Source: an uncultured Cytophagales bacterium
GTDB taxonomy: Bacteria; Bacteroidota; Bacteroidia; Cytophagales; UBA9547
Direction: 5' to 3'
Length of the DNA: 16,401 nucleotides
Assembly: GCA_945957555.1 (NCBI GenBank)
Contig: CAMFLX010000110.1
Location: 1 to 16,401, forward strand
Under the pieces are notes generated by a model that ran no database searches, had not been told where the DNA came from, and was given only the letters and a program-made list of their open reading frames with translations. Position 1 is the stretch's first letter, and every line of letters starts with the position of its first letter. A program made the translations under genes and the position numbers. This document shows positions 1,525-16,250 of the stretch, in pieces.

Positions 1525-4500
1525 TTATTCAAGAACAACCTTTCTCCATTCGCTAGAATGCTGATAAGTTATATTTAACAAGTATAATCCTTTTGGCAAA
1601 TCTACAGCAGGTACACTCAATATACTTGACGATACTGTATTTTGCCATAAAATATCTCCTTGCAGATTGCGCATTACCACTATGCTACCAGGAATCAGTC
1701 CTAACAAAGTGAATTGGTCTTTCGCAGGATTAGGGAAAATCTGTAATTGTCCAGCGCTAGACAATACCACCTGACCATTGCTGTTCAGAGAGTGTTCTTC
1801 TCTTACAAAAGTTTTAGAGAACTCTGTAATTAAAATCTCTCTTGAGTTGGCGGTACAACTATCAGAGGTACTTGTGAGCAATTGATAGTTGCCATTATAA
1901 TAAACCCTTAGGCTCTTGGCATGAGCACCGGCAATGGCCAGCCCGTTAATAAACCACTGATATTTTGGCTCCTGCCCTACAGGATAAATATTGGCACAAT
2001 GTAGAGACGAATCTGCTTCGGTAAAGTTAATAGATGGCGAATTATGAGCCTTGGTATTGATCAAGGTATCGCTAGAAATAACCACACATCCAGTAGCATT
2101 GTCATTAACTGTATAATTGTATGCTCCACTTACAAACAATGGGATCTTGCTATTATATGCACCGCTGATTTGATTACTGTTAAAATACCAATAAGAATAG
2201 TAGTTTGTAACAGGTCTATTGTTTCCTCCATACACCAAAGTGAAGCTCAAGGAATCTTGACCAGTACAGCTCGTCTGTGAGGCCTTGTACTTATACTTCA
2301 TCACATACGCTACTCCACAAGGTAAAAGTGTAATTGGGCGTCTGTAAAAGGTAAGACCAGGGAAATCTGTATTGTTTATCGTCACCGAGTATTTACCCGT
2401 ATCTGCTAAAGTAAAGGTAAACTTCAAAACATTTTCCTTAGATGTAGCAATGTTCAGATCTAAATAGCCTAGAGGTTTTTTATACTTAGTCCACGAATAA
2501 GTGGTTTTACTACCGGCCAATGTAGTTGTCAAACTAATGGCACTTCCCACAGCAGGCTTATAGGTACTTACAACATCTACGGAGTCATACTGAGGATAAT
2601 ATTTGTTAGGATTCTTATTGAACAAAGCAGTGTATGGCTCCAAATCTATATAATCCAAGTGATTGTCTTGCACATAGAGCTGCAAGCCTGTATTCAATGG
2701 TAAAAGCGGTAATGAAGTAAATCCTGAATTGTACTCAGTACTATCCACATTATTAGAATCCAGTGCACAATACTGAAGTTGTGTCAATTTTGTGAGTGTA
2801 TCATTAAAAGTTCCATAGATTTTATTATTACCAACATTTAAATAATTAAGTGCTGTGCAATATTTTAGCTTCGAAGCAAAACCTATGTAGTACATTGCAT
2901 TATGAGACACGTCTAAGTATTCTAGCTTTGGTAATACCCTCGGAAGCGAAAAACCTCCCTCAATGGCGTTATATGACAGATCCAGGTGCTTAAGCTGGGT
3001 ACTGGTAATCATCGTATCCAATAGTTGGTTTAAAGAATTAGTCAACTGACCTGTCAGCAAGTTGTGTGAAGCGTTAAGATATACCAAAGTATGTGGCGAA
3101 CTTAATCCTTTTCGGATATCCAAAGACTGAATGCTATCCTTAGAAATATCAATAAACTTAGGCAAAACACCGCCATAGGTATACAAAAGCCGTAGGTTGT
3201 TACCACTCATATCCAAGGTATCTGCAAGATCTTTAACATCGGTAGGCAAACTGATGTTGAGGCCTTGTATAAAAGACATTCCATTGTTTCTGAGCTTAAC
3301 AACTCTCAATTTACCGATGAACTGTCCCAAATCTAAACTAGCGGTTTTGATCTGGTTATCTGACAAATCCAGCACATTTAAATAGTCCAAACTATCAAGC
3401 CCAGAAAGAAACCCAGTAAGGCTCTTATTTGGCAACCTAATTTCTGTGATATATTCACAATCAACCTTTACACCAGGCCAAGTGCTGATATCAGAAGCTT
3501 TGAAACTTGCAGGCATCTTCATTTTTGTATTTCTATACAAATGAAGCATCGCGAGGGAATCTTTAATATTGAGTTTACAATACGTCACGTTTACAAAGAA
3601 TCTTTGCGTAATAAGAGAATCCGTACCCAATGAAGGGTATCTTACTACCGCGTAATATGAGCCAATATCGCTTTTCTGTACTTTATTCAAGATCAACTTT
3701 GCAGAATCATTAGCCAATCGTTCTTGGGTACCATCAAGTTTAATCCTATACCAAGTGTACTTCTGTAGCGGATCAGATTCATTGGCAATACCTGCATCGT
3801 ATTTATAACTAGAGTCTTGCCCAAACGCCCTCTCAGGTGCATTTACCATTAAAGAATCTTGAGGAAACCACCTGAGGGCACTTCCCAAACTTGCATAGCC
3901 CTTCAGATGCCCAAAATCTAGGCTGTTATTTTCTACATGTAAAGCTTTTAGCTTTGAGAGCTTAGGAATATAAGAGATCTTTTGACCAGGTTGGCTTTCA
4001 TCAAAGTTGTACACGTTAGAATCTAACGCCAAGTATTGCAAGTTCTGCAAGAGAGCAAAGCTATCCGATACTGCACCAAAGAAGCTGTTATTTCCCAAAT
4101 CAATATATTTCAGAGGCTTTCCAGGTACTTTCCAAGAGTTCAAAGTATTAACTGAGCCTGACAAATAATTATGGGCAAGGATCAAAGTATCTAGCCTTGG
4201 CAAGTAATCTAAACCTGGGAGTTCACCAGAGAACGTATTGTAAGAGGCATTTAGATACTGTAAGGAATCCACAAATGCTTTCAGATTTGGAAAAGGCCCA
4301 TATAATTGATTGCGAGAAACATCCAAATGCTTGATAGACTTTAAACTATCTACCAATTGTAAGCTATTATTGCTTAGCTGGTTATTACTGATGTTCAAAT
4401 ACTTTGTTTTAAAATCATAAAAACCTTCAAACAAGATACGCTCATTGCTCTGCAATTTGCTCCTCTTGTTCCCAAGCCTCTCCGTACCTGCAAAAGGATT

Positions 4501-7500
4501 GTAATACATTTCAAAGCTCTTCATCCTATTATTGCTCAAGTCCAAATAGGTAGGTACAAAGTTTTCAAAGCTAAATGAACCTTTAAAGTTATTATGTGCA
4601 AGGATTAAAGTATCCAAAGCACCTGCCTGAAATCTTGGCACGAAACTCTGGTTTTTATAGTCTGTGATGTTATTATGAGCCAAATTTATACTTTTGATTA
4701 CTTCGTAATTAAAATTGCCTAGTGCAAAACTTATAGAATCAAGAGCGTTGTTTGACAAATCGACTCTTTGAAGATAATACAAGTTATCTAAACCCGTCAC
4801 TGTACCTGCGAGTCCCTGATTCTTCAAATTAAGCCCTACTACATTGGCACAGTCAAAAGTCACTCCCGCCCAAGTCTTCACAGGTTTATTCAGATCCCAT
4901 TTGGGTTTTACTTTAAGACCTTCGTAAAACGTCACCAAAGCAAGCGAATCCTGTGCCGAAGCATCGCAAATCCTCACGTTTATATAAAGACCTTGTATTT
5001 CTATACTATCAGTAGTATAGCCAATAGTCTGGCGAAGTTGTCTCGCTTGGAAATCTGGGTGTAGTATTACGCACTTATACGTTCCCGACTGGTCTCTTTT
5101 CGCAGCAGTCAATCTCAAATTCCTAGTGGTTGCAACCAACCGTGGTACTTGGTTTACTAGTTGGTACCACTTGTAGCTCAGTTTTCCATCTTTAGTATCG
5201 GGAAATTTATTCAAAAACACTAAATCGTCTCCTTCATTAATCGTAATGGTCGTATCCATGTACTTCGCCTGCTGAGGCATCACTTTATTGTCATCCCCCC
5301 CGGGGTGTACATTTAAAAGCGACTTAAATGTCATCCTGTTATTAACGGCCCTAAAGGATGAGGCTTTCAAAAGTGCACCTTTGAAATTCACAAAAGAGGT
5401 ATCTGTAAAATTGTTATGAGAGATGTCTACAATATTAAGTTTGGAACTGCTCAATGGTTTTTGAGCATCAAAAGAACCTATAAATTTATTGTATGCAATA
5501 TCCAGATTCCTTAGCTCCGACAAAGTATCAAAAGCCAAATTAAAAGGCTTATCTACACCGATAGGCGCCGATTCCCCATTTAGATAAAGTCCAGCTACCC
5601 TACCGCATACTACTGTTACCAAGGAGTAGCCTCCACTCGAATTTTTCCAAGCATTTAAAGGCAAATAAGTCTGCGCGTCCAAGTCGTAAATAACATTACC
5701 GTACCAGAGATAATCATTGTTCGGGTTTGGCAGATTCCCAATACGTTCTACAAAGTTAACGACGGCAAGGCTATCTTCTTTTTTCAACTTCAAAGTATCA
5801 TCAAAGGAAATTTCTGCAATTGATTGTACATTAGTCGATAGACAATACTTGTCTTTAACTAATAGATTGAGCGAAGCCCCCCTCTCTAGTTCAAAAATAG
5901 GGACTGTTATATCCACTGTTCCACCCAACTTATCCCCAAACTTCTGATATTTTGACAACCCAGTCTCTAAAACCATAGGAACATATACATAAGAGGAATC
6001 AGTTACGGGCAAACTGATAAGTGCATCAGACGAACAAGTGGGAGGTGTATACTTGTACTGTATCGGTAAAGAAACATTCCCACTCCTGATCTCTATACTA
6101 TCTTTATAGAGAACTGTCTGGCAATCATTTCCGACAGACGCAAGCACCTTTAACTCAAATTTACCATCTAGGTCACCAAAGATCGGATTACTTTGGATCA
6201 TCAAGGTATCTGGCGCCAAGAAAATATAAGCCAAATTATAACGATCCAAGTTCGTTACATCATAATTTACACCCAATTGAGGGTTCACGATTTTCACATA
6301 ATACTTATCATTAGCCGACTTGCAATAAAATTTTGCCTGAGGGATTATCCGTGTCTTGTTATTCGCATTGGGGTACGATACCGTAGTATAGTTGCTACTA
6401 TCTTTAGTGACAGCAGCAGTACCATTCAACACTACCTTATTGAGCTTGAGTATCAAAGAGTCGCCAGTAACCAGCAAAGAAAGATCAATATGCTTTTCAC
6501 GCAACAATGTGGTAACCTGTGCTGTGCTCAAATCAAAAACAGTATTGGTTCGTACGCCATTAGTTACATCAGTACGCGCAATTTGTACAGTACAGTTATC
6601 GGTTTCTTGAACGCCCAATGCATCAATACCGTAGTAAAAGTTTTTATCTGCGCTGCTCTTACAAATAAAGGGGTTATTGCCCATTAACCTAAACTTAGGT
6701 TTATCGAATCTCCTTAATACTATCGGCGAAAACTGAACTGAATAGTACGGTTGTCCTGATGATGGCATTGCCGTTACATAAGGAAGAATAGAAACTGAAT
6801 CTGCTAACGACAAATAGTTCTGCAAAAACGAGGACTTAAATGTGAACGTGGCAAAACCTTGGGCATTTTTTGAATATGAAATCTCTCCTGAAAAATATGC
6901 TAAACCATTGACGTAATATGCTAAAGTATTGTCGCTATAGGAATCATCCTTTACTAATGTCGCTACATTCAAATCGGCAGTAATATCCGCACTCGGAACA
7001 TCTCTGATGATCTTGGCGCCCAAAACTTGAGGCACTACTGTGGTATAACCATTAGGCCCTTGGTAGTAAGAATTGGTAAAGCTCAGACTACTTGCTATAG
7101 TTGAGTTTGGCAATTGGTTGAAATCTATGTTAACGTTACTCTGTTCATTAAGTAGACCAGGCTTGCTATACAATTTTTGCACAAAGCCATCCTCAGTAGT
7201 GATCTGATTATTGTTCAAATTGAGGATCAAAGGTAACGAACTTGAAAAAGCACGACTACTTACAATTTTGGTCAGCTTGTTGTGGCTCACATCCAAAGAC
7301 TTACTTGGTGAAGAAGTTATTGCGGCCCCCATGTTAATCGCATAAGCATCAAATACACCCACAAATTCATTACCACCCAATCTTAGCTCTATCAAATTGA
7401 CTGAATTCCCTATGGCATTGTATGGGATAGTATCTGTCAATCGGTTATTGCTCAGGTTTAAGGACGTCAGCTTAGACATACTACTGAAAAGCTTACCTGG

Positions 7501-7941
7501 CAATACACCCTGTGCATTATTGCTTGAGAAGTTCAGACTCGTCAAGCCACTCAAATAGGCGATAATTGAATCCGCTTGAAAATACTTAACCTTTGTATTG
7601 TATTTAATTTGCAAATCAGTCAATTGTGCGAGTGGTTTCATCTTCGCATATTGTACAATACCACTTGCGGGTACCATATAATTCGCCAAGTCTAGACTCG
7701 TTACACTACCGTTGGCAACTGTAACTCCCTGCCAATACGAGCTTGCAGAAGGTTCCTTAAACCACATTTGCCCACTGGGTGTTCCCACAGGATACTGCCA
7801 ATTAGGCCCATCCAACGAAAGCCACAAACGTCTGAGACTTGTAGAATCGGCAATGCTAAGTTTCTGTGCCGATAGTTGATACTGAATTGATAATAGTGAG
7901 CACAAGAGCAAGAGTGCTCTTATATATGTTTGCTTAACCAT
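1525..7941 (-). CDS. giant (2138 aa) secreted leucine-rich-repeat / Ig-like cell-surface protein with a T9SS C-terminal sorting domain
   Basis: The ORF is 6.4 kb and uninterrupted. It has an N-terminal signal peptide (MVKQTYIRALLLLCSLLSIQYQLSA). There are dozens of LxxLxLxxNxL(s)G repeats, for example LDLSNNRMKSF, LDVSRNQLYGPFP, LNASYNTFSGELPG, LILAHNYLSGSV and IDLGNNSFFGAV. At least two Ig-like modules are present (KLSYKWYQ...RDQSGTYKCVI and YTWYRIKL...SDIGSYYAVV). The C-terminus reads IFPNPAKDQFTL...LPKGLYLLNI...KVVLE, which is typical of the Por/T9SS CTD. Confidence 0.85.
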   Translation of the reverse strand: MVKQTYIRALLLLCSLLSIQYQLSAQKLSIADSTSLRRLWLSLDGPNWQYPVGTPSGQMWFKEPSASSYWQGVTVANGSVTSLDLANYMVPASGIVQYAKMKPLAQLTDLQIKYNTKVKYFQADSIIAYLSGLTSLNFSSNNAQGVLPGKLFSSMSKLTSLNLSNNRLTDTIPYNAIGNSVNLIELRLGGNEFVGVFDAYAINMGAAITSSPSKSLDVSHNKLTKIVSSRAFSSSLPLILNLNNNQITTEDGFVQKLYSKPGLLNEQSNVNIDFNQLPNSTIASSLSFTNSYYQGPNGYTTVVPQVLGAKIIRDVPSADITADLNVATLVKDDSYSDNTLAYYVNGLAYFSGEISYSKNAQGFATFTFKSSFLQNYLSLADSVSILPYVTAMPSSGQPYYSVQFSPIVLRRFDKPKFRLMGNNPFICKSSADKNFYYGIDALGVQETDNCTVQIARTDVTNGVRTNTVFDLSTAQVTTLLREKHIDLSLLVTGDSLILKLNKVVLNGTAAVTKDSSNYTTVSYPNANNKTRIIPQAKFYCKSANDKYYVKIVNPQLGVNYDVTNLDRYNLAYIFLAPDTLMIQSNPIFGDLDGKFELKVLASVGNDCQTVLYKDSIEIRSGNVSLPIQYKYTPPTCSSDALISLPVTDSSYVYVPMVLETGLSKYQKFGDKLGGTVDITVPIFELERGASLNLLVKDKYCLSTNVQSIAEISFDDTLKLKKEDSLAVVNFVERIGNLPNPNNDYLWYGNVIYDLDAQTYLPLNAWKNSSGGYSLVTVVCGRVAGLYLNGESAPIGVDKPFNLAFDTLSELRNLDIAYNKFIGSFDAQKPLSSSKLNIVDISHNNFTDTSFVNFKGALLKASSFRAVNNRMTFKSLLNVHPGGDDNKVMPQQAKYMDTTITINEGDDLVFLNKFPDTKDGKLSYKWYQLVNQVPRLVATTRNLRLTAAKRDQSGTYKCVILHPDFQARQLRQTIGYTTDSIEIQGLYINVRICDASAQDSLALVTFYEGLKVKPKWDLNKPVKTWAGVTFDCANVVGLNLKNQGLAGTVTGLDNLYYLQRVDLSNNALDSISFALGNFNYEVIKSINLAHNNITDYKNQSFVPRFQAGALDTLILAHNNFKGSFSFENFVPTYLDLSNNRMKSFEMYYNPFAGTERLGNKRSKLQSNERILFEGFYDFKTKYLNISNNQLSNNSLQLVDSLKSIKHLDVSRNQLYGPFPNLKAFVDSLQYLNASYNTFSGELPGLDYLPRLDTLILAHNYLSGSVNTLNSWKVPGKPLKYIDLGNNSFFGAVSDSFALLQNLQYLALDSNVYNFDESQPGQKISYIPKLSKLKALHVENNSLDFGHLKGYASLGSALRWFPQDSLMVNAPERAFGQDSSYKYDAGIANESDPLQKYTWYRIKLDGTQERLANDSAKLILNKVQKSDIGSYYAVVRYPSLGTDSLITQRFFVNVTYCKLNIKDSLAMLHLYRNTKMKMPASFKASDISTWPGVKVDCEYITEIRLPNKSLTGFLSGLDSLDYLNVLDLSDNQIKTASLDLGQFIGKLRVVKLRNNGMSFIQGLNISLPTDVKDLADTLDMSGNNLRLLYTYGGVLPKFIDISKDSIQSLDIRKGLSSPHTLVYLNASHNLLTGQLTNSLNQLLDTMITSTQLKHLDLSYNAIEGGFSLPRVLPKLEYLDVSHNAMYYIGFASKLKYCTALNYLNVGNNKIYGTFNDTLTKLTQLQYCALDSNNVDSTEYNSGFTSLPLLPLNTGLQLYVQDNHLDYIDLEPYTALFNKNPNKYYPQYDSVDVVSTYKPAVGSAISLTTTLAGSKTTYSWTKYKKPLGYLDLNIATSKENVLKFTFTLADTGKYSVTINNTDFPGLTFYRRPITLLPCGVAYVMKYKYKASQTSCTGQDSLSFTLVYGGNNRPVTNYYSYWYFNSNQISGAYNSKIPLFVSGAYNYTVNDNATGCVVISSDTLINTKAHNSPSINFTEADSSLHCANIYPVGQEPKYQWFINGLAIAGAHAKSLRVYYNGNYQLLTSTSDSCTANSREILITEFSKTFVREEHSLNSNGQVVLSSAGQLQIFPNPAKDQFTLLGLIPGSIVVMRNLQGDILWQNTVSSSILSVPAVDLPKGLYLLNITYQHSSEWRKVVLE
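1528..1782 (-). other. T9SS (Por secretion system) C-terminal sorting domain of the giant protein
   Basis: The last ~85 aa contain FPNPAKDQFTL, VMRNLQGDILWQ and LPKGLYLLNITY...KVVLE. This matches the type-A CTD pattern (PNP-x-D ... KG-x-Y). Confidence 0.7.
7867..7941 (-). other. signal peptide of the giant LRR protein (about 25 aa)
   Basis: Basic N-terminus (MVKQTYIR), a hydrophobic core ALLLLCSLLSI, and a likely cleavage site near LSA/QK. Confidence 0.55.
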
Positions 7942-8838: not shown

Positions 8839-10746
8839 TTAAGACTTCTTAGGTGTTTGATCTTTGTTTGGATCTATCAGTTCCATGAGTTTCAAGCCCA
8901 AGAGACCATCCATGGCAGTACCACCATTGGCGCCACCTCCGATCAATACTTCCGGGATCAACTTAATGTTACCTTTAGACAGCTCTTCTGTGATTTTGAA
9001 CTTGGTAAAGTTCTCTCCACCCAAAGCCTTAACCGCCAACTCGTAAGCTTCGGCGGTAGATTTACCTATAGCTAGAATTTTACCAGCTTCAGCAGCACCT
9101 ACTAGGGAAATCTGCTCTGCCTGTGCGGCTGCTTTTAACTTGATGGCCTCCGACTCCGCCACAGCTCTCGCCTTGGTCGCTTCAGCTTCGGCATGTGCCC
9201 TTAACTTAGTAGCCTCCGCCTCAGCACTTACTGCAAGTTTCACACTTGAGGCATCTCCTTCAGATTTTTTCACGGTTGCATTGGCAGTACGCTCAGCGAT
9301 TTCCACACTTTGTTGCGCCTTCACGATGTCCTTTTGCATATCTGCGATGGCCGTTTCCTTCTCCATCCCCTGGCGCGTCTCTTGCGCTTCCTTTTGGGTA
9401 TCGTAAGTTACCTTTTGTTCTTCGGCAATCTTACGTTCTGTAAGTGTTCTCATCAAAGACTCTGGAGGTACGATATCCCCGATCAGTGTATCCACCGCAT
9501 TTACGTTGTATTCGTCCAATACTTTTTTGATATGCGACTTCGCAGACTCCTGTCTTTCCTTACGAGTGCTTAGGAAAGCGATCACATCACTGTCTTGTGC
9601 CGAGTTACGGAAATAGTTGCCAATGGTCGGCTCCAATACCTGCGAAACCAAGTTTACCATGTTTCCAAATCTTGCGATTACCTTTGGTGCCTCGGTAGTA
9701 GGCACGTGTATGATCTGTGAAACATCTAAGTTAAAAGGGAAACCGTCCTTAGACCGTACCGTTATCGTGGAGAGATGTTTGTCCAAATTATGTGCCTCAC
9801 TACGTGCGCTGGCCCAGTTGAGTACCAGATTGGTAGTAGGCACCTGCTCTACTTTCATAATATATTTATTGATAGGGTATTTACCTGGCCCTAGTGGCTC
9901 GAGCCAAACACCTTTAAAGCCTTTTTCTACAATATTACCATGCTTAAAGTCGTCACCTGTCAGGTCTTGCCCCTCCTGTCCGATAAATGAGATCACTACC
10001 CCTACATAACCAATAGGAATCTCCGTCATATAAGTTTCTTCAATCTGCACCGCCCATGGGTTGATGTTGTACGAACCCGCCAAGATCACCTGTGGTTGCA
10101 AGCCTCTGTTACCACCCTTTTTAATAAAGGCATCAAAATCCTGAAAGTTATTGTGTCCTTCAACATGTCTACCTGCTATTTGTCCTGCCTCTATAGGCAA
10201 ACCATCAAGAGTAGTTACAATACCCACCTTACTTTCGCCGATTTTAACCATATCAGCTTCTGTGAGTTGAAACAGAAAGGTATTGATCCTGTAAGAACCC
10301 GAAGTAATGTATGCTGTTTGACGACCCTTTTGGCCACCGTTGGAAAGAAACTTTTCAGCATCCTGAAAATTATCACAATCCACACGTTGTGCCAAGATGT
10401 TACCCGTAGGAATCTCGCCGCCGTCTTTAGCCATCACCAAACCGATCTTTCCCTCAGGGATGATCGTAAAGTTTTCCATAGTGACCTCATACTGCCATAC
10501 CCACATGCCAAAATACACCCCTGGTGCCAATGTTTTAGCCTGATAACCAGCCTCTCCCTTGGTGGCTATGATGCGACCGTCAGGCAATTCCTTGTTTTCT
10601 CCAAAAAGAACGAATGTTTTTGTGACCAAACCGATTTTATCCTCAGGCACTATGACCATACCGAAGATAAAACGAAGTACAAATTTGTACATGACGACTA
10701 AAATAATTAGGACTAATACCCACCAAAAACTTAAGATGTTTTCCAT
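8839..10746 (-). CDS. flotillin-like SPFH/band-7 membrane protein (635 aa) with N-terminal tandem repeats
   Basis: N-terminal TM helix (FWWVLVLIILVVMYKFVLRFIFGMVIV). SPFH core (ITVRSKDGFPFNLDVSQIIHV...VIAFLSTRKERQESAKSHIKKVLDEYNVNAVDTLIGDIVPPESL...). C-terminal Ala/Glu-rich flotillin coiled coil (AVSAEAEATKLRAHAEAEATKARAVAESEAIKLKAAAQAEQ). An alternative in-frame Met at residue 30 gives the same TM topology. Confidence 0.85.
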   Translation of the reverse strand: MENILSFWWVLVLIILVVMYKFVLRFIFGMVIVPEDKIGLVTKTFVLFGENKELPDGRIIATKGEAGYQAKTLAPGVYFGMWVWQYEVTMENFTIIPEGKIGLVMAKDGGEIPTGNILAQRVDCDNFQDAEKFLSNGGQKGRQTAYITSGSYRINTFLFQLTEADMVKIGESKVGIVTTLDGLPIEAGQIAGRHVEGHNNFQDFDAFIKKGGNRGLQPQVILAGSYNINPWAVQIEETYMTEIPIGYVGVVISFIGQEGQDLTGDDFKHGNIVEKGFKGVWLEPLGPGKYPINKYIMKVEQVPTTNLVLNWASARSEAHNLDKHLSTITVRSKDGFPFNLDVSQIIHVPTTEAPKVIARFGNMVNLVSQVLEPTIGNYFRNSAQDSDVIAFLSTRKERQESAKSHIKKVLDEYNVNAVDTLIGDIVPPESLMRTLTERKIAEEQKVTYDTQKEAQETRQGMEKETAIADMQKDIVKAQQSVEIAERTANATVKKSEGDASSVKLAVSAEAEATKLRAHAEAEATKARAVAESEAIKLKAAAQAEQISLVGAAEAGKILAIGKSTAEAYELAVKALGGENFTKFKITEELSKGNIKLIPEVLIGGGANGGTAMDGLLGLKLMELIDPNKDQTPKKS

Positions 10747-10774
10747 GATTTAAAGTTTATATTTTACTTTAGAG

Positions 10775-10782
10775 CAAATATA
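10775..10782 (-). promoter_or_regulatory. candidate -7 element TATATTTG for the flotillin gene
   Basis: The minus-strand upstream sequence reads ...AAATAAATTTATATTTGCTCTAAAGTAAAATATAAACTTTAAATC-ATG. TATATTTG fits TAnnTTTG about 28 nt upstream of the ATG, in an AT-rich, SD-less context. Confidence 0.3.
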
Positions 10783-10920
10783 AATTTATTTTTAAATAAT
10801 ATAAGAAGAACCACCACAAATATGAATAGCCTTTATATGTCGTCATGTGGGCACAAAATTGCGGATTAAATCGAAAAGCATATTGATAGAGACCACCGAG
10901 AAAATCGGGATAAGTTCCTC

Positions 10921-10948
10921 ATTGATGCTCAGTTTAGAGAGCATCAAT
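10921..10948. terminator. 10-bp inverted repeat hairpin 113 nt downstream of the HD-GHKL gene; weak terminator candidate
   Basis: ATTGATGCTC-AGTTTAGA-GAGCATCAAT is a perfect 10-bp stem with an 8-nt loop. No convincing U-tract follows on either strand, so the call is low-confidence. Confidence 0.25.
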
Positions 10949-11060
10949 ACCAAGACTCTCTATTTTGATGTTGCCTTATTTCACAAACCACCTTTATTAG
11001 GCATAAATACCCTCAGCTTACAGTTTGTCATCACAATAGACCATAAACACTTGAGCTTCC

Positions 11061-14000
11061 TTAAGCCCTAACTGTTGAAAAAATATTATTAGTATCCACC
11101 ATTACTAAATAGTCTGCAATAAGTTTTGCATAACCATTTTTGATTTCTTGAGGTGTTAATGTTCCATCCTGTTTAAAGGAAGAATTACTGATTGTCCAGT
11201 TAATCATATTAATTGGTATTAGATCGTCAATATATTTTTTGAAAATTAAATTCTCAAGAGAGGAAGTGTTTTTGCTGACTTTGGCTTCATTTATTTGAGC
11301 TTCTAAGTCTTTCTTTATGTTCTCAGCCTCATTATCCGATTTAAATGGAGAAAGTATTCCATGGTGAGTATAATCGTTAAAATATTCAAAACCACTTATA
11401 TAGACATTTTTTGTAGCTAGAATTGAATACTCTTTAAGAGGTAAAATTTTTCTTCGTTCATCAGAGCGTCCGAATCCGATTAACTCCTTTAACTCAAAAC
11501 CAATATCCTTATTTGAGATCATCACAAAAGGGAATTGGTCATTGGTTTTTTCTAGTATGGCTATTCTGTGTAAGTATTTAATGTCCTTAACGTCTGATGA
11601 TATTAATATTTCAGTAACTTTTAATCCATCATTCCAAAAGTAATCTTCTAAGTAGCGTTCTGATATTAATATTGCATCAACTTTTTCCCCTAAATCATTA
11701 TTACTTTTAACCCATTTTGTTTTGAGGCTCTCATAATCACTCATATTTGCATTTATTCTTATTCCTATATTTTTGAAAGAAACAACTGCAACTTTATTAA
11801 TATTGAAAAATTCTAAAGCATTCATCTGTTTCTTTTCTTTATTCAGAATAATCTTAGAAGGGATTTTAAGGGACTTTAAAATTGATTCATTTTTGTTTGC
11901 AATATCTAAGCGGAATGTTTTCGCAGTTAATAGAGCATTAAAATATAATATTGACATTTTTGCCTTGTCATCACTTTTTACAAGTTTAAAAAATTCTTCA
12001 GAGACTATCTTTAAAATGTCAATGATAATAATAGGCAATAATTCATTTCTTATGTTATTTCTTATTTCTCTATAATACTCTGCTAATAATTTGTTCCGTG
12101 CAATGTTTAGCATTTTGTCTGAATCAGGATCGAGCAAATTAATACTAATTGCACAATACATTAATCCAAATGATGTTGCATAACTTTTGGTATCAGGCAC
12201 ATGCATATTCCTGACAAAAATTATCTTTTCAAATTCTGGATTCGAATAGTGAAAATTGATCAGATCAAAAGATTGGATGAAATTCAAATTTATTCGTGAT
12301 CCAATAATTCGACTTTCTGTGATTTCAAAAACAAATTCCTCAGTATTTTCAAAGTCAATTGTTTTGTCCATTTTTATCTGTATATCCTGATCGTGAAATA
12401 CTGATACATGCTCATTTTCATAATCAATATGGTTATCTAGGATTGTTTCATATGGAGTTTCAAGAGTTAGGTTTGGCATACTTAATAGATTTTCATGTAT
12501 ATAGTTTATTATTTTTTTTAAGTATAACTCTTCTCTATCGTTTAAAAATGCATCGAAAGAGGCAATTACATCCATGTTAAAATTACTATATCCATATATT
12601 TGTTCTAATTGATTTTTGGGAATTTTTATTTCAACCCTACTGCCCCTTTGTTGAGGGCTATCAAGAATTTCTAAGGAACAATATTCTCTATTTTTGGCAG
12701 ACCTCAAACTAAGTTTTATTGCGCTTTCACCATCAGCTTGTGTATAAATATCAAATTCTTTTACGATTAAAAAAACGGATTGTAGACCCAATCCAAATGC
12801 ACCTGTGGGTTTTAGCCAAAAAGGCATCGTTTCTTTAAATTTGTTATGTTCTAGATCTTGCTTTCGACTTTCACCCACATTTCCAATCATTCGTATGATG
12901 TTTTTTTCAGATATACCAGTTCCTTTATCAATCACCTCAATAATTAAAAAATCTTTAGATGCATTAGACCACTTTAAATTGAGATTGATTGGATAATTCT
13001 CATAAATTGCCAAAGGTATGTCTTCAGGGAATTTAATAGCTTCTAAAATTTGTTGATGATTTTTATTTAAAAAATTAATATTTGGATATCTATTGATAAG
13101 ATTATCCTTTATGAAATTATCATAATAACCTTTTTGAATATCAATCCAAAGTTGAATATTACTAGCATCTTTGGCATTTTGAATTAACTCACGTAGAAAT
13201 ACAAACTCGGGGTCACTATATAATGCCTTTCCTTCCAAAATTCCAAAAACTTTACTAGGGGTTATGTCAAAACGAAGATTCATAAAACCCTTTTTGGGTT
13301 CTTTGCCATTCGAAAGCACTAAAATTTTTTCTTTAGAAAGAATAGGAGCGTTGCCTCCTAAATTCTTAGGAGCGATTTTATGCCATTTTAAATTTTGATT
13401 TTTTATCTCTTCCTCAAGCCAATCGAACCATTCTCTTGCGATTCTATAAACTCGGTCATTGCCTTTACAATCGACCGTGGCTTCTATACCAAGAGGGCTG
13501 ATATTCAAATGTTCGGTAGCGGCATGTTTTTTTTTGTGGATTTCAGAAGATGTTGGAAGTTTGTCTCCAAAAATATTCTCTTGAAACTTATTAAAACGTT
13601 TGTCATCAATGTCTAAGAGATCTCCTAGTCGCAACATACAAGCTACAAATCTTGGGTGCATCTTATCATTTGCAATGCCATTTGCTTGGAATTCCAATTT
13701 ATCGAAGATGTATTCATATTTAGATCCATGCGCTTCTGCAATCTTACCAAGTACTTCAAGAAACCGATTAGGGATTTGGTCAGCATAAAAATTGGATAAA
13801 ATATTGGTAAAATTTTCATCCATTCCCTTTAATACATCATTGCTCCTGTAATAGTGTGTTCTTCTGAAATACTCAGCAGAAAGAAGCGTTATTGCCGTAC
13901 GGACTTTCAATGGGAAGTTAAAGTCCAACTCAGGGTTTGGTTCGTTATTTGTCAATTGTAATATGATTACTGCTGATTTTGCCAAATCCGGGTCAGTATA

Positions 14001-14360
14001 CTCCTTTACCTCTTCTAAAAAATCTTTAAATTCCGCTTCATTCCATTTCTTTTCTAAAGTATTGTAAAATACAATCATGCCTAGATCATGAGTATACGCA
14101 GCCATGATCAACATCCAAGTATCGGTCGGAGAAAGTGTCTTGATTCTTTCTTCGCCGAGGAAACTCTCTATATTTCTTAATATCGTATTTGAATGACTAC
14201 TGTCGTGAAGGCTATAGTGGGGGAAAGTAACTTGAACTGTTGTCAATGCACTTCCAAGATTTTTCTTATTAAGTTTCCAAATTGAATTTAGAATCTCGTA
14301 CTCCTCATTCGTTTTGCTTAGATTTTCAAGATGTTTTTCTAAGGTGTATACTTCTAGCAT
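11061..14360 (-). CDS. HD-domain phosphohydrolase fused to a GHKL (Hsp90/MORC-like, HATPase_c) ATPase, with a ~500-aa C-terminal region of unknown function
   Basis: The ORF is 3.3 kb and uninterrupted. The N-terminus has HD motifs (FPH48YSLH52D53SSH56S ... AAYTH91D92LGM, later RLGDLLDIDD), laid out like the dGTPase/SAMHD1 HD fold. The centre carries a Bergerat-fold ATPase: N-box FLRELIQNAKDA (E391, N395, D398), G1 box EVIDKGTGIS (D478, G480, G482) and G2 box TGAFGLGLQ (G520-G525). No HisKA/DHp or receiver domain is present. The C-terminal half has no motif I recognise. The gene is very AT-rich, about 27% GC in sampled 60-nt stretches. Confidence 0.85.
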   Translation of the reverse strand: MLEVYTLEKHLENLSKTNEEYEILNSIWKLNKKNLGSALTTVQVTFPHYSLHDSSHSNTILRNIESFLGEERIKTLSPTDTWMLIMAAYTHDLGMIVFYNTLEKKWNEAEFKDFLEEVKEYTDPDLAKSAVIILQLTNNEPNPELDFNFPLKVRTAITLLSAEYFRRTHYYRSNDVLKGMDENFTNILSNFYADQIPNRFLEVLGKIAEAHGSKYEYIFDKLEFQANGIANDKMHPRFVACMLRLGDLLDIDDKRFNKFQENIFGDKLPTSSEIHKKKHAATEHLNISPLGIEATVDCKGNDRVYRIAREWFDWLEEEIKNQNLKWHKIAPKNLGGNAPILSKEKILVLSNGKEPKKGFMNLRFDITPSKVFGILEGKALYSDPEFVFLRELIQNAKDASNIQLWIDIQKGYYDNFIKDNLINRYPNINFLNKNHQQILEAIKFPEDIPLAIYENYPINLNLKWSNASKDFLIIEVIDKGTGISEKNIIRMIGNVGESRKQDLEHNKFKETMPFWLKPTGAFGLGLQSVFLIVKEFDIYTQADGESAIKLSLRSAKNREYCSLEILDSPQQRGSRVEIKIPKNQLEQIYGYSNFNMDVIASFDAFLNDREELYLKKIINYIHENLLSMPNLTLETPYETILDNHIDYENEHVSVFHDQDIQIKMDKTIDFENTEEFVFEITESRIIGSRINLNFIQSFDLINFHYSNPEFEKIIFVRNMHVPDTKSYATSFGLMYCAISINLLDPDSDKMLNIARNKLLAEYYREIRNNIRNELLPIIIIDILKIVSEEFFKLVKSDDKAKMSILYFNALLTAKTFRLDIANKNESILKSLKIPSKIILNKEKKQMNALEFFNINKVAVVSFKNIGIRINANMSDYESLKTKWVKSNNDLGEKVDAILISERYLEDYFWNDGLKVTEILISSDVKDIKYLHRIAILEKTNDQFPFVMISNKDIGFELKELIGFGRSDERRKILPLKEYSILATKNVYISGFEYFNDYTHHGILSPFKSDNEAENIKKDLEAQINEAKVSKNTSSLENLIFKKYIDDLIPINMINWTISNSSFKQDGTLTPQEIKNGYAKLIADYLVMVDTNNIFSTVRA
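12726..13238 (-). other. GHKL / HATPase_c ATP-binding domain (approx. aa 375-545) of the fusion protein
   Basis: N-box LRELIQNAKDA, G1 IDKGTGIS and G2 GAFGLGLQ are present in canonical order and spacing for a Bergerat fold. Confidence 0.7.
13583..14228 (-). other. HD phosphohydrolase domain (approx. aa 45-260) of the fusion protein
   Basis: Motifs H48, H52-D53, H56, H91-D92 and RLGDLLD are consistent with the metal-binding residues of the HD superfamily. Confidence 0.6.
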
Positions 14361-14632
14361 TTTAATGAATTTTAGTATTGTTTTACATATTTACTCAAAA
14401 GTTCTTAAAACTTTATTTGAAATATTATATATAAATCATATAAAAATAAATAATATGATTCAATTCGAAGATATAGAAAACCACCAGCAAATAGCAAAAA
14501 GAGCCTTTTCTAAGGCAGGACAAACTAATTTAGATGAAGATTGGCAAATGTATAATAGTCTTATTAATGAACTTTGGTGTTTAATAGAAAAATTTGGTTT
14601 AGCGAGATATATAAGGAAGAAGAAAATTAATT

Positions 14633-15055
14633 CTATTTTCCCCTCAACCTCTCCTCCAGCATCTCGATCATCTTCTGCTGCATCTTTACCTGCTCGGTAA
14701 GGAGCCTGATATTGTCTTCATAAAGTCTTTTTAGGTCATCAGGAAAAGTATTCAAGTTGCCATATACAAAACCAGCACTGCCATTCATGGTTTGATAGTT
14801 ATTAAAAACCACTTTCTCATCAAAACTCAGCACCTCTTCAGGTTTCATTTCAAAGATGCCAGAGATCTCGAGCAGGCGGTCTATGTTGATAGACACCTCG
14901 TCGCGTTCGATTCTCTGATAGCCCGAAAGCGTCATGTCTAGGCGGTCGGCCATGTCTTTGGCGGTGATGTTTTTGAGTTCTCTGATCTTGTGAATCTTGT
15001 TGCCGACCTTCATCATGTCTTTGGAGTTTGTTACGATATCCTGTGGTACAAACAT
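14633..15055 (-). CDS. XRE-family (Cro/cI-type) helix-turn-helix transcriptional regulator, 140 aa
   Basis: N-terminal HTH_3 pattern (KIHKIRELKNITAKDMADRLDMTLSGYQRIERDEVSINIDRLLEISGIFEMKPEEV) and a C-terminal coiled-coil-like tail. It lies on the same strand as, and 272 bp upstream of, the HD-GHKL gene. Confidence 0.8.
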   Translation of the reverse strand: MFVPQDIVTNSKDMMKVGNKIHKIRELKNITAKDMADRLDMTLSGYQRIERDEVSINIDRLLEISGIFEMKPEEVLSFDEKVVFNNYQTMNGSAGFVYGNLNTFPDDLKRLYEDNIRLLTEQVKMQQKMIEMLEERLRGK

Positions 15056-15187: not shown

Positions 15188-15217
15188 AAAAAAAAAGGCT
15201 GCCCTTTTTGGACAGCC
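15188..15217 (-). terminator. rho-independent terminator of the FN3 gene
   Basis: The minus-strand RNA is GGCUGUCC-AAAAA-GGGCAGCC: an 8-bp stem with one G-U pair, followed by U9 (the plus-strand A9 at 15188-15196). It lies immediately 3' of the stop at 15225. Confidence 0.7.
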
Positions 15218-15224
15218 CCTTTGC

Positions 15225-15857
15225 CTACTGAACCCTACTGAGGGCTTCGCTCCACTCGCCAGCGCCGCTGCGGTTGATGGCACGTACGCGGTAGAAGTAC
15301 CTTTGGCCTTTTTCTATGTCATCGTCGGTAAACTTGAGCTTTTTCACCGTTCGTAGAAAGGGGTATGGCGGTGGCAATACCAAAGCCTTGGGGTCTTCGC
15401 TTTGTCCTCTTTGTACTTCGAAGTGCTCCACATCGTCAATGCTCCCAAGTCGAACAATGAAGCCAACACCGTCGTCGTCGTCAGTGATGCTTTCAATGAC
15501 CACCTTGGCAGGAATCGGCAACCTTTTAGAGCCCCCTCCGCCCCCTTTTTGAGCCTGAGCGCTTAGTCCGTACTCGTTGAGCTTCTCGCTGCTGTCGGCG
15601 TGCAAGGCATAGGCGAAATTGTCGATCTGGTCAAGCGTTTTCTTTTGGTTTTCGATCTCTTTGTGGGCAAGATCCCTGCGCTGTTGCAACTCTTGCACGC
15701 TATCTTCGATCGACTTGCCCAGATCCCCTAAGGTTTTGATCATTGCGTCAATAATGACGTCTTTTATGGGCATGTTCACCCATTTGTCTGCATTTTTCAC
15801 GATACCGTTTTTTCTTTTCTTCAGTTCGGCGATCTGGTCTTCAATGTATTTAGCCAT
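15225..15857 (-). CDS. small coiled-coil + fibronectin type III domain protein (211 aa from MAKYIEDQ...; the longest ORF would start at 15911)
   Basis: The N-terminal ~115 aa are heptad-rich (QIAELKKRK...QELQQRRDLAHKEIENQKKTLDQI). A GGGGGS linker follows. The C-terminal FN3 signature is PIPAKVVIESITDDDDGVGFIVRLG...YFYRVRAINRSGAGEWSEAL. GC is high (about 50%). The 54 nt between 15858 and 15911 are AT-rich, unlike the gene body, so I prefer the start at 15857. Confidence 0.65.
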   Translation of the reverse strand: MAKYIEDQIAELKKRKNGIVKNADKWVNMPIKDVIIDAMIKTLGDLGKSIEDSVQELQQRRDLAHKEIENQKKTLDQIDNFAYALHADSSEKLNEYGLSAQAQKGGGGGSKRLPIPAKVVIESITDDDDGVGFIVRLGSIDDVEHFEVQRGQSEDPKALVLPPPYPFLRTVKKLKFTDDDIEKGQRYFYRVRAINRSGAGEWSEALSRVQ

Positions 15858-16250
15858 ATAATTTAAAAGGAGTTTATGCTGCAATTTTAGGAGTTTGGGG
15901 AAAAATTTCAAAACTGGGCATTATAAAATATAGGCTCGGACCTTTCCCCCAAGAATATAGAATCTCAAAAACTGAATATAAACTAAATGGACAAAAACAA
16001 AACCCTTATAATGTGTTATAACATAGAAATTTAGGTCTGTACCCTGCAAATATATTTTTGGGTTTAAATATATTTCGCCCGCCTTTAAATCTATAAATGA
16101 TGTAGAAAGTCCTAATCCTCAAAAAATATATCAAAAATTCGATGAAAAGATCCCCAAATTCTATCTCAAAGAAGCTTTTTTTACAAAACCCAGAGCAATT
16201 AAACCCCTTTTAATGAAATCGTATCGGTTAAATAAGAAGAGGAAGGCTTG

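Follow-up and report, generated by a model that had tools for sequence, protein, structure and literature searches.

AVAST and the related NLR-like STAND proteins are immune sensors built of an N-terminal effector, a central nucleoside triphosphatase (NTPase) and a C-terminal sensor that diversifies rapidly. In Hsp90 the middle (M) and C-terminal (C) domains are responsible for client binding and dimerisation, and binding of ATP closes the N-terminal (N) domains with exchange of their N-terminal strands. HSP90- and HSP70-related modules coupled to nucleotide-targeting CE effectors were reportedly predicted, as counterparts of the STAND and GTPase switches, by Nicastro, Burroughs, Iyer and Aravind (NAR 2023), and the names HD-CE, iHD-CE and PRTase-CE are said to come from the same study. 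VcSduA, a GHKL ATPase joined to a nuclease, is a validated single-gene anti-phage defence that needs both activities (PMC12137116), and Calcineurin-CE, a sister "-CE" effector, acts by depletion of deoxynucleoside triphosphates (dNTPs) in a validated system (PMC12871103). Fusions of GHKL ATPases to effectors in the neighbourhood of restriction-modification (RM) genes define the paraMORCs (PMC2292703). The subject of this work is a gene in a 16,401-nucleotide stretch of DNA, hereafter the window (the whole stretch at its full length), of an uncultured Cytophagales bacterium (GenBank assembly GCA_945957555.1, contig CAMFLX010000110.1). Its product joins an HD-CE domain to an Hsp90-type ATPase, and the gene belongs, as a typical member despite its divergence (~40% identity), to a catalogued class of single-gene conflict systems that is known from computational prediction.

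The gene lies on the minus strand at 11061-14360. The list of open reading frames (ORFs) and the translation bear out the single uninterrupted frame of 1099 amino acids (aa) that had been reported in the first-pass annotation, which a model had made from the letters of the window; the frame begins with ATG. The architecture of the protein is HD-CE, Hsp90 N, Hsp90 M and then an alpha/beta and helical tail of ~270 aa:

11061..14360, minus strand: whole gene, fusion of HD-CE with an Hsp90-type (N-M-C-like) part, stop codon included; homologues of 950-1130 aa are full-length in many loci
13398..14225, minus strand: HD-CE phosphoesterase domain, aa 46-321 (Pfam PF24391), with the catalytic set H52, H56, H91-D92, H169, H211, D247, D250, D252
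12591..13238, minus strand: Hsp90-type N-terminal ATP-binding (Bergerat) domain, aa ~375-590, with E391, N395, D398, D478xGxG482, T519 and G523xG525
11871..12590, minus strand: Hsp90 middle-domain-like segment, aa ~591-830, with R717 (YVRRVFI-type), D748 and R755 (LN-x-S/A-R, catalytic arginine)
11064..11870, minus strand: fast-diverging alpha/beta and helical C-terminal region, aa ~831-1099, with few invariant residues (R969, S1004-P1005-F1006, Y1077)

It is useful to set this layout beside those of the systems named above. The AVAST and bacterial NLR-like STAND proteins are organised alike, with the effector at the N-terminus, the NTPase in the centre and a diversifying C-terminus, and both they and the window gene are single-gene systems of patchy distribution. 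Their switch, however, is a P-loop oligomeriser, whereas that of the window protein is of the GHKL/Hsp90 dimeric clamp kind, and the two have no sequence relationship. VcSduA/paraMORC3 (the GHKL-ATPase Shedu, type I-D) resembles the window protein in combining a GHKL ATPase, a clamp-like middle domain and a phosphoesterase effector in one polypeptide, and both genes stand alone. The effector of VcSduA is a C-terminal PD-(D/E)xK nuclease (DUF4263) and its ATPase is of the paraMORC type, whereas the effector of the window protein is an N-terminal HD domain and its ATPase is of the Hsp90 type, with no PADLOC match to Shedu. The window protein also falls outside MORC and paraMORC1-5, whose members have a GHKL + S5 module of MORC/MutL type and operonic helicase, methylase or restriction endonuclease genes. 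In the HSP90-coupled CE-effector systems (Calcineurin-CE, HD-CE, PRTase-CE) a CE effector is reportedly likewise combined with an Hsp90-related ATPase, and in the window protein the two are fused. Like these systems, the window gene is stand-alone and belongs to a patchily distributed family often found in defence or mobile contexts.

The N-terminal domain matches the curated Pfam family HD-CE (PF24391) over the complete profile (positions 1-263 of 263, aa 46-321) with 166.3 bits, where the cutoff is 27 (E=1.4e-48), and the same Pfam match was obtained for 27 of 27 homologues from distant phyla. The HD set H52, H56, H91-D92, H169, H211, D247, D250 and D252 is invariant in 34 full-length homologues (33-40% identity) and also in the 27 distant ones (24-54% identity). 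Judged by these intact metal-binding and catalytic residues, the window protein would carry the active version of the domain and not the inactive "iHD-CE". The HD residues picked out earlier were H48, H52-D53, H56 and H91-D92; H52, H56 and H91-D92 are indeed invariant, while H48 and D53 proved to be common but not invariant. Degeneration of the catalytic motifs across homologues, which the first-pass annotation had named as a finding that would speak against a defence protein, was not seen, the motifs being invariant down to 24% identity.

The only solved relatives retrieved with the HD-CE profile were class I 3',5'-cyclic-nucleotide phosphodiesterases (PDEs), namely PDE8A, PDEB1, PDE9A, PDE1B and PDE7A (best E 1e-3), which aligned through the H-x3-H ... 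HD motifs (H52/H56/H91-D92). An AlphaFold2 model of residues 1-345, of moderate confidence (predicted local distance difference test score, pLDDT, 69), gave PPX/GppA and PDEs as leading fold matches, followed by HD-GYP, SpoT/Rel, small alarmone hydrolases and the SidE PDE; neither SAMHD1/Dgt nor a Cas3 HD nuclease was among the best 60. The metal-ligand arrangement of HD-CE is identical to that of the class I PDEs and of the HD-like domain of PPX/GppA, although the similarity to both is very distant (8-15% identity), and HD-CE has invariant residues beyond the set of these enzymes (H169, H211, D250, D252 and H275/K278/H279/H284/C298). This evidence, distant but consistent, suggests that HD-CE is a phosphodiesterase or pyrophosphatase-type HD domain that would act on nucleotides.

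The domain had been described earlier as dGTPase/SAMHD1-like because of its motif order. The order H...HD...D is generic to all HD proteins and not diagnostic of dGTPase or SAMHD1, and we rejected this assignment on the grounds that the sequence leads to class I PDEs and the fold to PPX/GppA, PDEs, HD-GYP and SpoT-type enzymes, with no SAMHD1/Dgt in the best 60 fold matches. SAMHD1/Dgt and HD-CE have the HD superfamily in common and possibly also a nucleotide-depleting outcome, but the first-His motif of the window protein is the PDE-type H-x3-H. PADLOC, whose models presumably include a defence dGTPase, gave no match for the window protein.

A side observation concerns the end of HD-CE, where H275, K278, H279, H284 and C298 (H-x3-H-x4-H-x13-C; aa 275-298, window positions 13467-13538, minus strand) form an invariant cluster. 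In the model the cluster lies on a helix and a beta-hairpin, and nothing corresponds to it in the alignments with PDEs. Either a further metal site, perhaps for Zn, or a site for substrate binding that is peculiar to HD-CE could be located here.

For the central ATPase, intact N-, G1 and G2 boxes had been reported, with an N-box of "Hsp90/MORC/MutL type". All three boxes, L389-RELIQNAKDA-399 (E391, N395, D398), D478-x-G480-x-G482 and G523-x-G525, are present and are invariant in the 34 homologues. With a profile built from these sequences, the best 60 PDB matches listed were all N-domains of Hsp90, Grp94 or HtpG, with E values down to 7e-13; LRELIQNAKDA, DKGTGIS and GAFGLGLQS of the window protein align to LRELISNASDA, DNGVGM and GQFGVGFYS of the Hsp90 family. 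The generic GHKL models of Pfam match weakly (HATPase_c with E=0.012, HATPase_c_3 also weakly), and the NCBIfam HSP90 family PRK14083 matches aa 378-606 with E=1e-12. The type can thus be narrowed to Hsp90 proper; the MORC/MutL and kinase-type alternatives were dropped, as the PDB sequence matches listed are all of the Hsp90 family and the fold matches of the C-terminal half, though weak, are to Hsp90.

In the last ~500 aa no motif had been recognised in the first pass, but they start with an Hsp90 middle domain that includes the catalytic loop. Residues 590-1099 were modelled with AlphaFold2 from a 28-sequence alignment (pLDDT 80, predicted template modelling score 0.79), and the best 50 Foldseek matches of the model were all Hsp90, each of them weak singly but unanimous together. 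In the profile-to-HtpG alignment the family motif "Y-l-v-R-d-i-p-v ... S-D-k-i-l-n-l-s-R-d-k-l-i" is paired with HtpG "LYVQRVFIMD ... SSDLPLNVSREILQ", which puts the invariant R755 on the catalytic arginine of Hsp90 and R717 in the YVRRVFI motif. R717, D748 and R755 of the middle domain are invariant in the 34 full-length homologues. The ATPase is thus of the Hsp90 type and, to judge from its residues, catalytically complete, with the Glu, Asn and Gly boxes of the N-domain and the catalytic arginine of the middle domain. Since the residues of the HD domain, the ATPase and the middle domain are all invariant, both enzymes are expected to be active.

The window protein is nevertheless not an HtpG, as had been concluded earlier. 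It shares with Hsp90/HtpG the N-domain ATP site (ExxxN, DxGxG, GxxGxG) and a middle domain in which the catalytic-arginine motifs YV-R-RVFI and LN-x-SR(E) are present, and Hsp90 N+M structures are among its fold matches. Unlike these chaperones, it has an extra N-terminal HD-CE enzyme of 345 aa and a divergent C-terminal region without a confirmed Hsp90 C-terminal domain. Its score with PRK14083 is 47 bits, below the equivalog cutoff of 455, and in contrast to HtpG, which belongs to the core genome, the HD-CE/Hsp90 family is sporadic, horizontally transferred and found in variable neighbourhoods. The exclusion of a two-component histidine kinase also stood: Pfam detected no HisKA or receiver (Response_reg) domain, HATPase_c reached E=0.012 at best, and there is no transmembrane (TM) segment, the peak of hydropathy over 19 residues being 1.47.

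The tail (aa ~831-1099) was modelled confidently, with block pLDDT values mostly 80-97, and gave no specific fold match beyond weak alignments to Hsp90 M+C. It may be a divergent Hsp90 C-domain; we propose that it serves as a sensor and/or dimerisation region. Conservation declines steeply from the N- to the C-terminus: HD-CE has a mean pairwise identity of 0.53, the Hsp90 N-domain 0.50, the M-like segment 0.28 and the tail 0.23. Among 224 full-length homologues the C-terminal half was less conserved than the N-terminal half in every case, and in pairs with 90-100% identity in the N-half the C-half was 52-96% identical (mean 76%). The C-terminal half diverges 2-4 times faster than the catalytic N-terminal half, and for many relatives the alignment ends at about residue 600.

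The family is large. A word-indexed search found 1252 relatives. Almost all of the best 120 have full length, and the majority of these come from Bacteroidota; the closest relative of the window protein has 40-41% identity. An exhaustive search of 1.84 billion representatives gave at least 760 clusters (50% identity) at E<=1e-30, and longer variants, too, retain HD-CE and GHKL. A scan of one genome per species with two strict peptide patterns yielded 77 loci, a number that is a lower bound, distributed over Bacteroidota, Clostridia, Leptospiraceae, Vulcanimicrobiaceae, Calditrichales, Hyphomonadaceae, Fibrobacter, Campylobacterota and Enterobacterales (Buttiauxella). Such a sporadic spread across phyla is typical of horizontal transfer.

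The first-pass annotation had called the protein undescribed. With a curated Pfam family for its N-terminal domain and an architecture that recurs in at least 760 clusters, this is most probably wrong at the in-silico level; it is right in so far as the searches found no experiments and the family is absent from the 2023 PADLOC library. The PADLOC search proposed in that annotation found no family for the 1099-aa protein at E<=0.1 in PADLOC-DB v2.0.0 (2023), and PHROGs, NCBIfam and PADLOC v2 gave no assignment beyond HD-CE/Hsp90. An HD-CE or Hsp90-based defence protein was not mentioned in the searched open-access literature, which included papers on conflict systems and on the discovery of defence systems.

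Several features connect the family with mobile DNA. Copies were found on seven plasmids or megaplasmids and on one small contig of an uncultured phage, although most copies are chromosomal and only one of 50,697 phage records contains the gene. The Runella copy is within a prophage-like run of small ORFs, the Hymenobacter plasmid copy has recombinases on its flanks and an AbiEii toxin gene near, and the Pantoea plasmid copy has an AAA-ATPase/UvrD pair on one side and a tyrosine recombinase/integrase on the other; MNT/HepT, integrase or DUF4238 genes are close to other copies. In the window, the AT-rich island seen in the first pass could be confirmed: the GC content is 0.312 for the HD-CE/Hsp90 gene and 0.228 for the spacer upstream of it, whereas the neighbouring genes have 0.39-0.48. 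The low-GC block extends over ~10,600-14,600, and the gene is compositionally foreign in the window.

In gut Bacteroidales a type IIG RM system is directly adjacent to the homologue in at least eight loci, with at least two different RM families, and one Bacteroidales locus also has a SNF2-PLD helicase, RhuM/Fic and an AAA_15/DUF4276 pair nearby. The adjacency could reflect a lineage-specific functional link, as proposed for the paraMORCs, or a shared defence-island hotspot. In the loci L007, L017, L030, L011, L013, L027, L035 and L078-L081 (gut and rumen Bacteroidales) the homologue is immediately downstream of the type IIG RM genes, and in L078-81 these two are separated by the gene of a 395-aa protein with weak similarity to DzbB.

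None of the neighbouring genes is a conserved partner. When the flanking ORFs of 78 loci were clustered all against all, no cluster extended to more than 6 of them, in agreement with the earlier view of a stand-alone gene, and the helix-turn-helix (HTH), SPFH and fn3 proteins encoded in the window have no counterparts beside the homologues. The HTH neighbour had been taken as a sign of defence context. A search of 89 homologue loci with a hidden Markov model of two HTH proteins found an HTH like that upstream of the window gene in Salegentibacter (L082) alone, plus one weak case on the opposite strand, thus the HTH is not a conserved partner; in this genome it may at most provide local control of expression. 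A two-gene system of HTH and enzyme was dropped for the same reason, a similar upstream HTH being present in 1 of 89 loci. The more general proposal of a defence or conflict protein fared better, as the patchy distribution, the low GC content, the plasmid and prophage sites and the frequent RM neighbours all fit it.

With moderate confidence we read the window gene as encoding a self-contained conflict protein, most likely directed against phages or other mobile elements, in which an effector, an Hsp90 NTPase switch and a sensor are combined. HD-CE is attached directly to the N-terminal strand end of the Hsp90-type ATPase. By analogy with Hsp90 and the STAND sensors, the variable M/C region would recognise an infection cue, e.g. 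a phage protein, and recognition would permit the ATP-driven N-terminal closure of the Hsp90 dimer. Closure would then reposition, pair or unmask two HD-CE domains and turn them on. The active HD-CE would hydrolyse free nucleotides or a nucleotide-derived molecule (NTP/dNTP or similar), and this hydrolysis would starve replication, with growth arrest or abortive infection as the outcome. The precedents of VcSduA and Calcineurin-CE make such a mechanism plausible. A more specific form of this idea, which we put forward tentatively and consider possible rather than probable, is an immune sensor on an Hsp90 scaffold, which would be the first bacterial case open to experiment: the diversifying client surface of M/C would detect phage proteins, or misfolded or assembling proteins induced by infection, and N-closure would trigger a PDE-type HD domain that destroys nucleotides.

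It must be noted that several points weigh against reading the gene in this way. Sensing by the C-terminal half and the way in which the enzyme would be activated are drawn from analogy rather than from observation, and the substrate is judged from distant similarity alone, that is from E values of ~1e-3 at the sequence level and from a model of pLDDT 69 at the level of the fold. The neighbours in the window (SPFH, fn3, LRR/T9SS and UreD proteins) are not encoded by defence genes, and only a minority of 139 immediate neighbours match defence models, many being ordinary, in counts made without a control set. The 1099-aa protein has no match in PADLOC v2 or the PHROGs, and a search of the open-access literature found no experiments on any member of the HD-CE/Hsp90 family.

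The alternatives differ in the substrate that they assign to the HD domain and in the beneficiary of its activity. If the HD domain were a Cas3-like nuclease and the GHKL module an ATP-driven DNA clamp of the kind found in MORC, paraMORC, MutL and VcSduA, the protein would be a restriction-like cutter of invading DNA or RNA, possibly working with an adjacent RM system. VcSduA works in this way (PMC12137116), GHKL-effector fusions near RM genes are the hallmark of the paraMORCs (PMC2292703), and in several loci of Bacteroidales the gene has a type IIG RM as its direct neighbour; however, the RM association is limited to one lineage, the ATPase is specifically Hsp90-like, including the LN-x-SR loop, with PDB matches listed to Hsp90 and not to MutL or MORC, and the best 60 fold matches of the HD domain contain nucleotide-directed HD enzymes instead of a Cas3-type HD. 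We therefore regard a nuclease coupled to a clamp as unlikely. Little weight can be given, in our opinion, to a non-immune accessory enzyme, i.e. a chaperone-linked PDE that would degrade cyclic mononucleotides, cyclic dinucleotides, (p)ppGpp or polyphosphate under proteotoxic stress. The closest solved relatives of the HD domain are indeed enzymes of signalling nucleotides or polyphosphate (PDEs, PPX/GppA, HD-GYP, SpoT), Hsp90 modules normally handle the folding states of proteins, and several loci have no defence genes nearby. Such a role is difficult to reconcile with the extremely patchy occurrence across phyla, the low GC content and the plasmid and prophage locations, with the lack of a conserved operon with signalling or chaperone genes, with the rapid divergence of the C-half, which would be unusual for a housekeeping regulator, and with the score far below the cutoff of the HSP90 family equivalog (47 bits vs 455).

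The gene might also serve the mobile element itself, either as a counter-defence enzyme directed against immune nucleotides (CBASS, Pycsar, type III CRISPR, Thoeris) or as an addiction module or exclusion factor of a plasmid or prophage. We consider this very improbable. A PDE-like active site could cleave cyclic nucleotides, and plasmids, a prophage-like block and a phage contig do carry copies, but prophage- and plasmid-borne defence genes are common, so that location does not discriminate, and most copies are chromosomal, with a single one in 50,697 phage records. To our knowledge, the known anti-signalling enzymes are small and constitutive; the window-type protein, with 1100 aa, predicted gating by ATP and a diversifying tail, is unlike them.

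Should the conflict protein with an Hsp90 switch prove to be correct, a bacterial Hsp90 module would have been re-used as an immune on/off switch for a nucleotide-destroying enzyme. If the more specific idea of a client-recognising sensor held as well, client recognition of the chaperone type would be a third immune switch beside the STAND and GTPase switches, and prokaryotes would have their own parallel to the link between Hsp90 and NLRs in plants and animals. In the searched literature we found an Hsp90 module as immune switch only as a genome-based prediction. The family is compact, with one gene, no partner needed and two clearly defined active sites that can be mutated, and the Buttiauxella and Pantoea members are convenient representatives that can be tested in E. 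coli. A positive result would give a new class of bacterial immune sensor as well as the substrate of the HD-CE effector family.

The enterobacterial members mentioned are those of Buttiauxella noackiae ATCC 51607 (L057) and of the Pantoea agglomerans plasmid pPA-MXU-125 (L085, 7995-10745). They have 917-918 aa and ~29-30% identity over the HD-CE and Hsp90 part. In five loci (L005 at 10001-13202, L002, L033, L060, L077) the homologue appears as two or three separate ORFs, e.g. 702+393 aa in L005, which is a nanopore-derived metagenome-assembled genome, and 241+281+547 aa in L060. The split homologues could be due to recurrent pseudogenisation of a costly gene or to frameshifts in the assemblies.

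The other features of the window were:

14361..14632, minus strand: AT-rich spacer of 272 bp, GC 0.23 (by composition), upstream of the HD-CE/Hsp90 gene
14633..15055, minus strand: Xre/HTH_3 regulator of 140 aa (Pfam HTH_3, E=2e-9), upstream of the HD-CE/Hsp90 gene on the same strand
15192..15222, minus strand: strong intrinsic-terminator-like hairpin, a 13-bp stem followed by a T-run, 3' of the fn3 gene
15225-15911, minus strand: fn3 protein of 228 aa, coiled-coil N-half and C-terminal fibronectin-III-like domain
8839-10746, minus strand: SPFH/Band-7 protein of 635 aa, downstream neighbour, N-terminal TM helix and long Ala/Glu/Lys-rich coiled-coil tail
1525-7941, minus strand: secreted leucine-rich repeat (LRR) protein of 2138 aa, many leucine-rich repeats, Ig-like domains and a C-terminal sorting domain of the type IX secretion system (T9SS)

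The spacer presumably serves the HD-CE/Hsp90 gene as promoter or regulatory region; in a promoter scan its sigma-70-like hexamers (14463-14435, 14398-14369) were no commoner than in shuffled sequence. A scan of the island region found no tRNA or obvious att repeat marking the low-GC island. The hairpin at 15192..15222 is the strongest terminator of the region and divides the fn3 gene from the unit of HTH and HD-Hsp90 genes. The HTH gene has a GC content of 0.44, like the flanks and unlike the island, and its product matches HTH_VI, control protein and, weakly, capH in PADLOC, and repressor families among the PHROGs.

The spacer between the HTH and HD-Hsp90 genes also contains a small AT-rich ORF on the plus strand (14458-14700; 80 aa from an internal ATG, or 128 aa from a TTG at 14314), which overlaps the HTH gene at the latter's 3' end. 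Neither Pfam nor the PHROGs gave a match to this ORF, which may not be a real gene or may be a small divergent one of the island. The 228-aa fn3 protein has a weak likeness to an Ig-like domain of phage tail tips (E=0.028) and no PHROG match. The large LRR/T9SS protein, whose sorting domain points to a host from the Bacteroidota, as do the nearest homologues of the HD-CE/Hsp90 protein, is unrelated to the HD-CE/Hsp90 finding. The 635-aa SPFH protein, which is absent beside the homologues, matches phrog_200 and weakly resembles the flotillin FloT.

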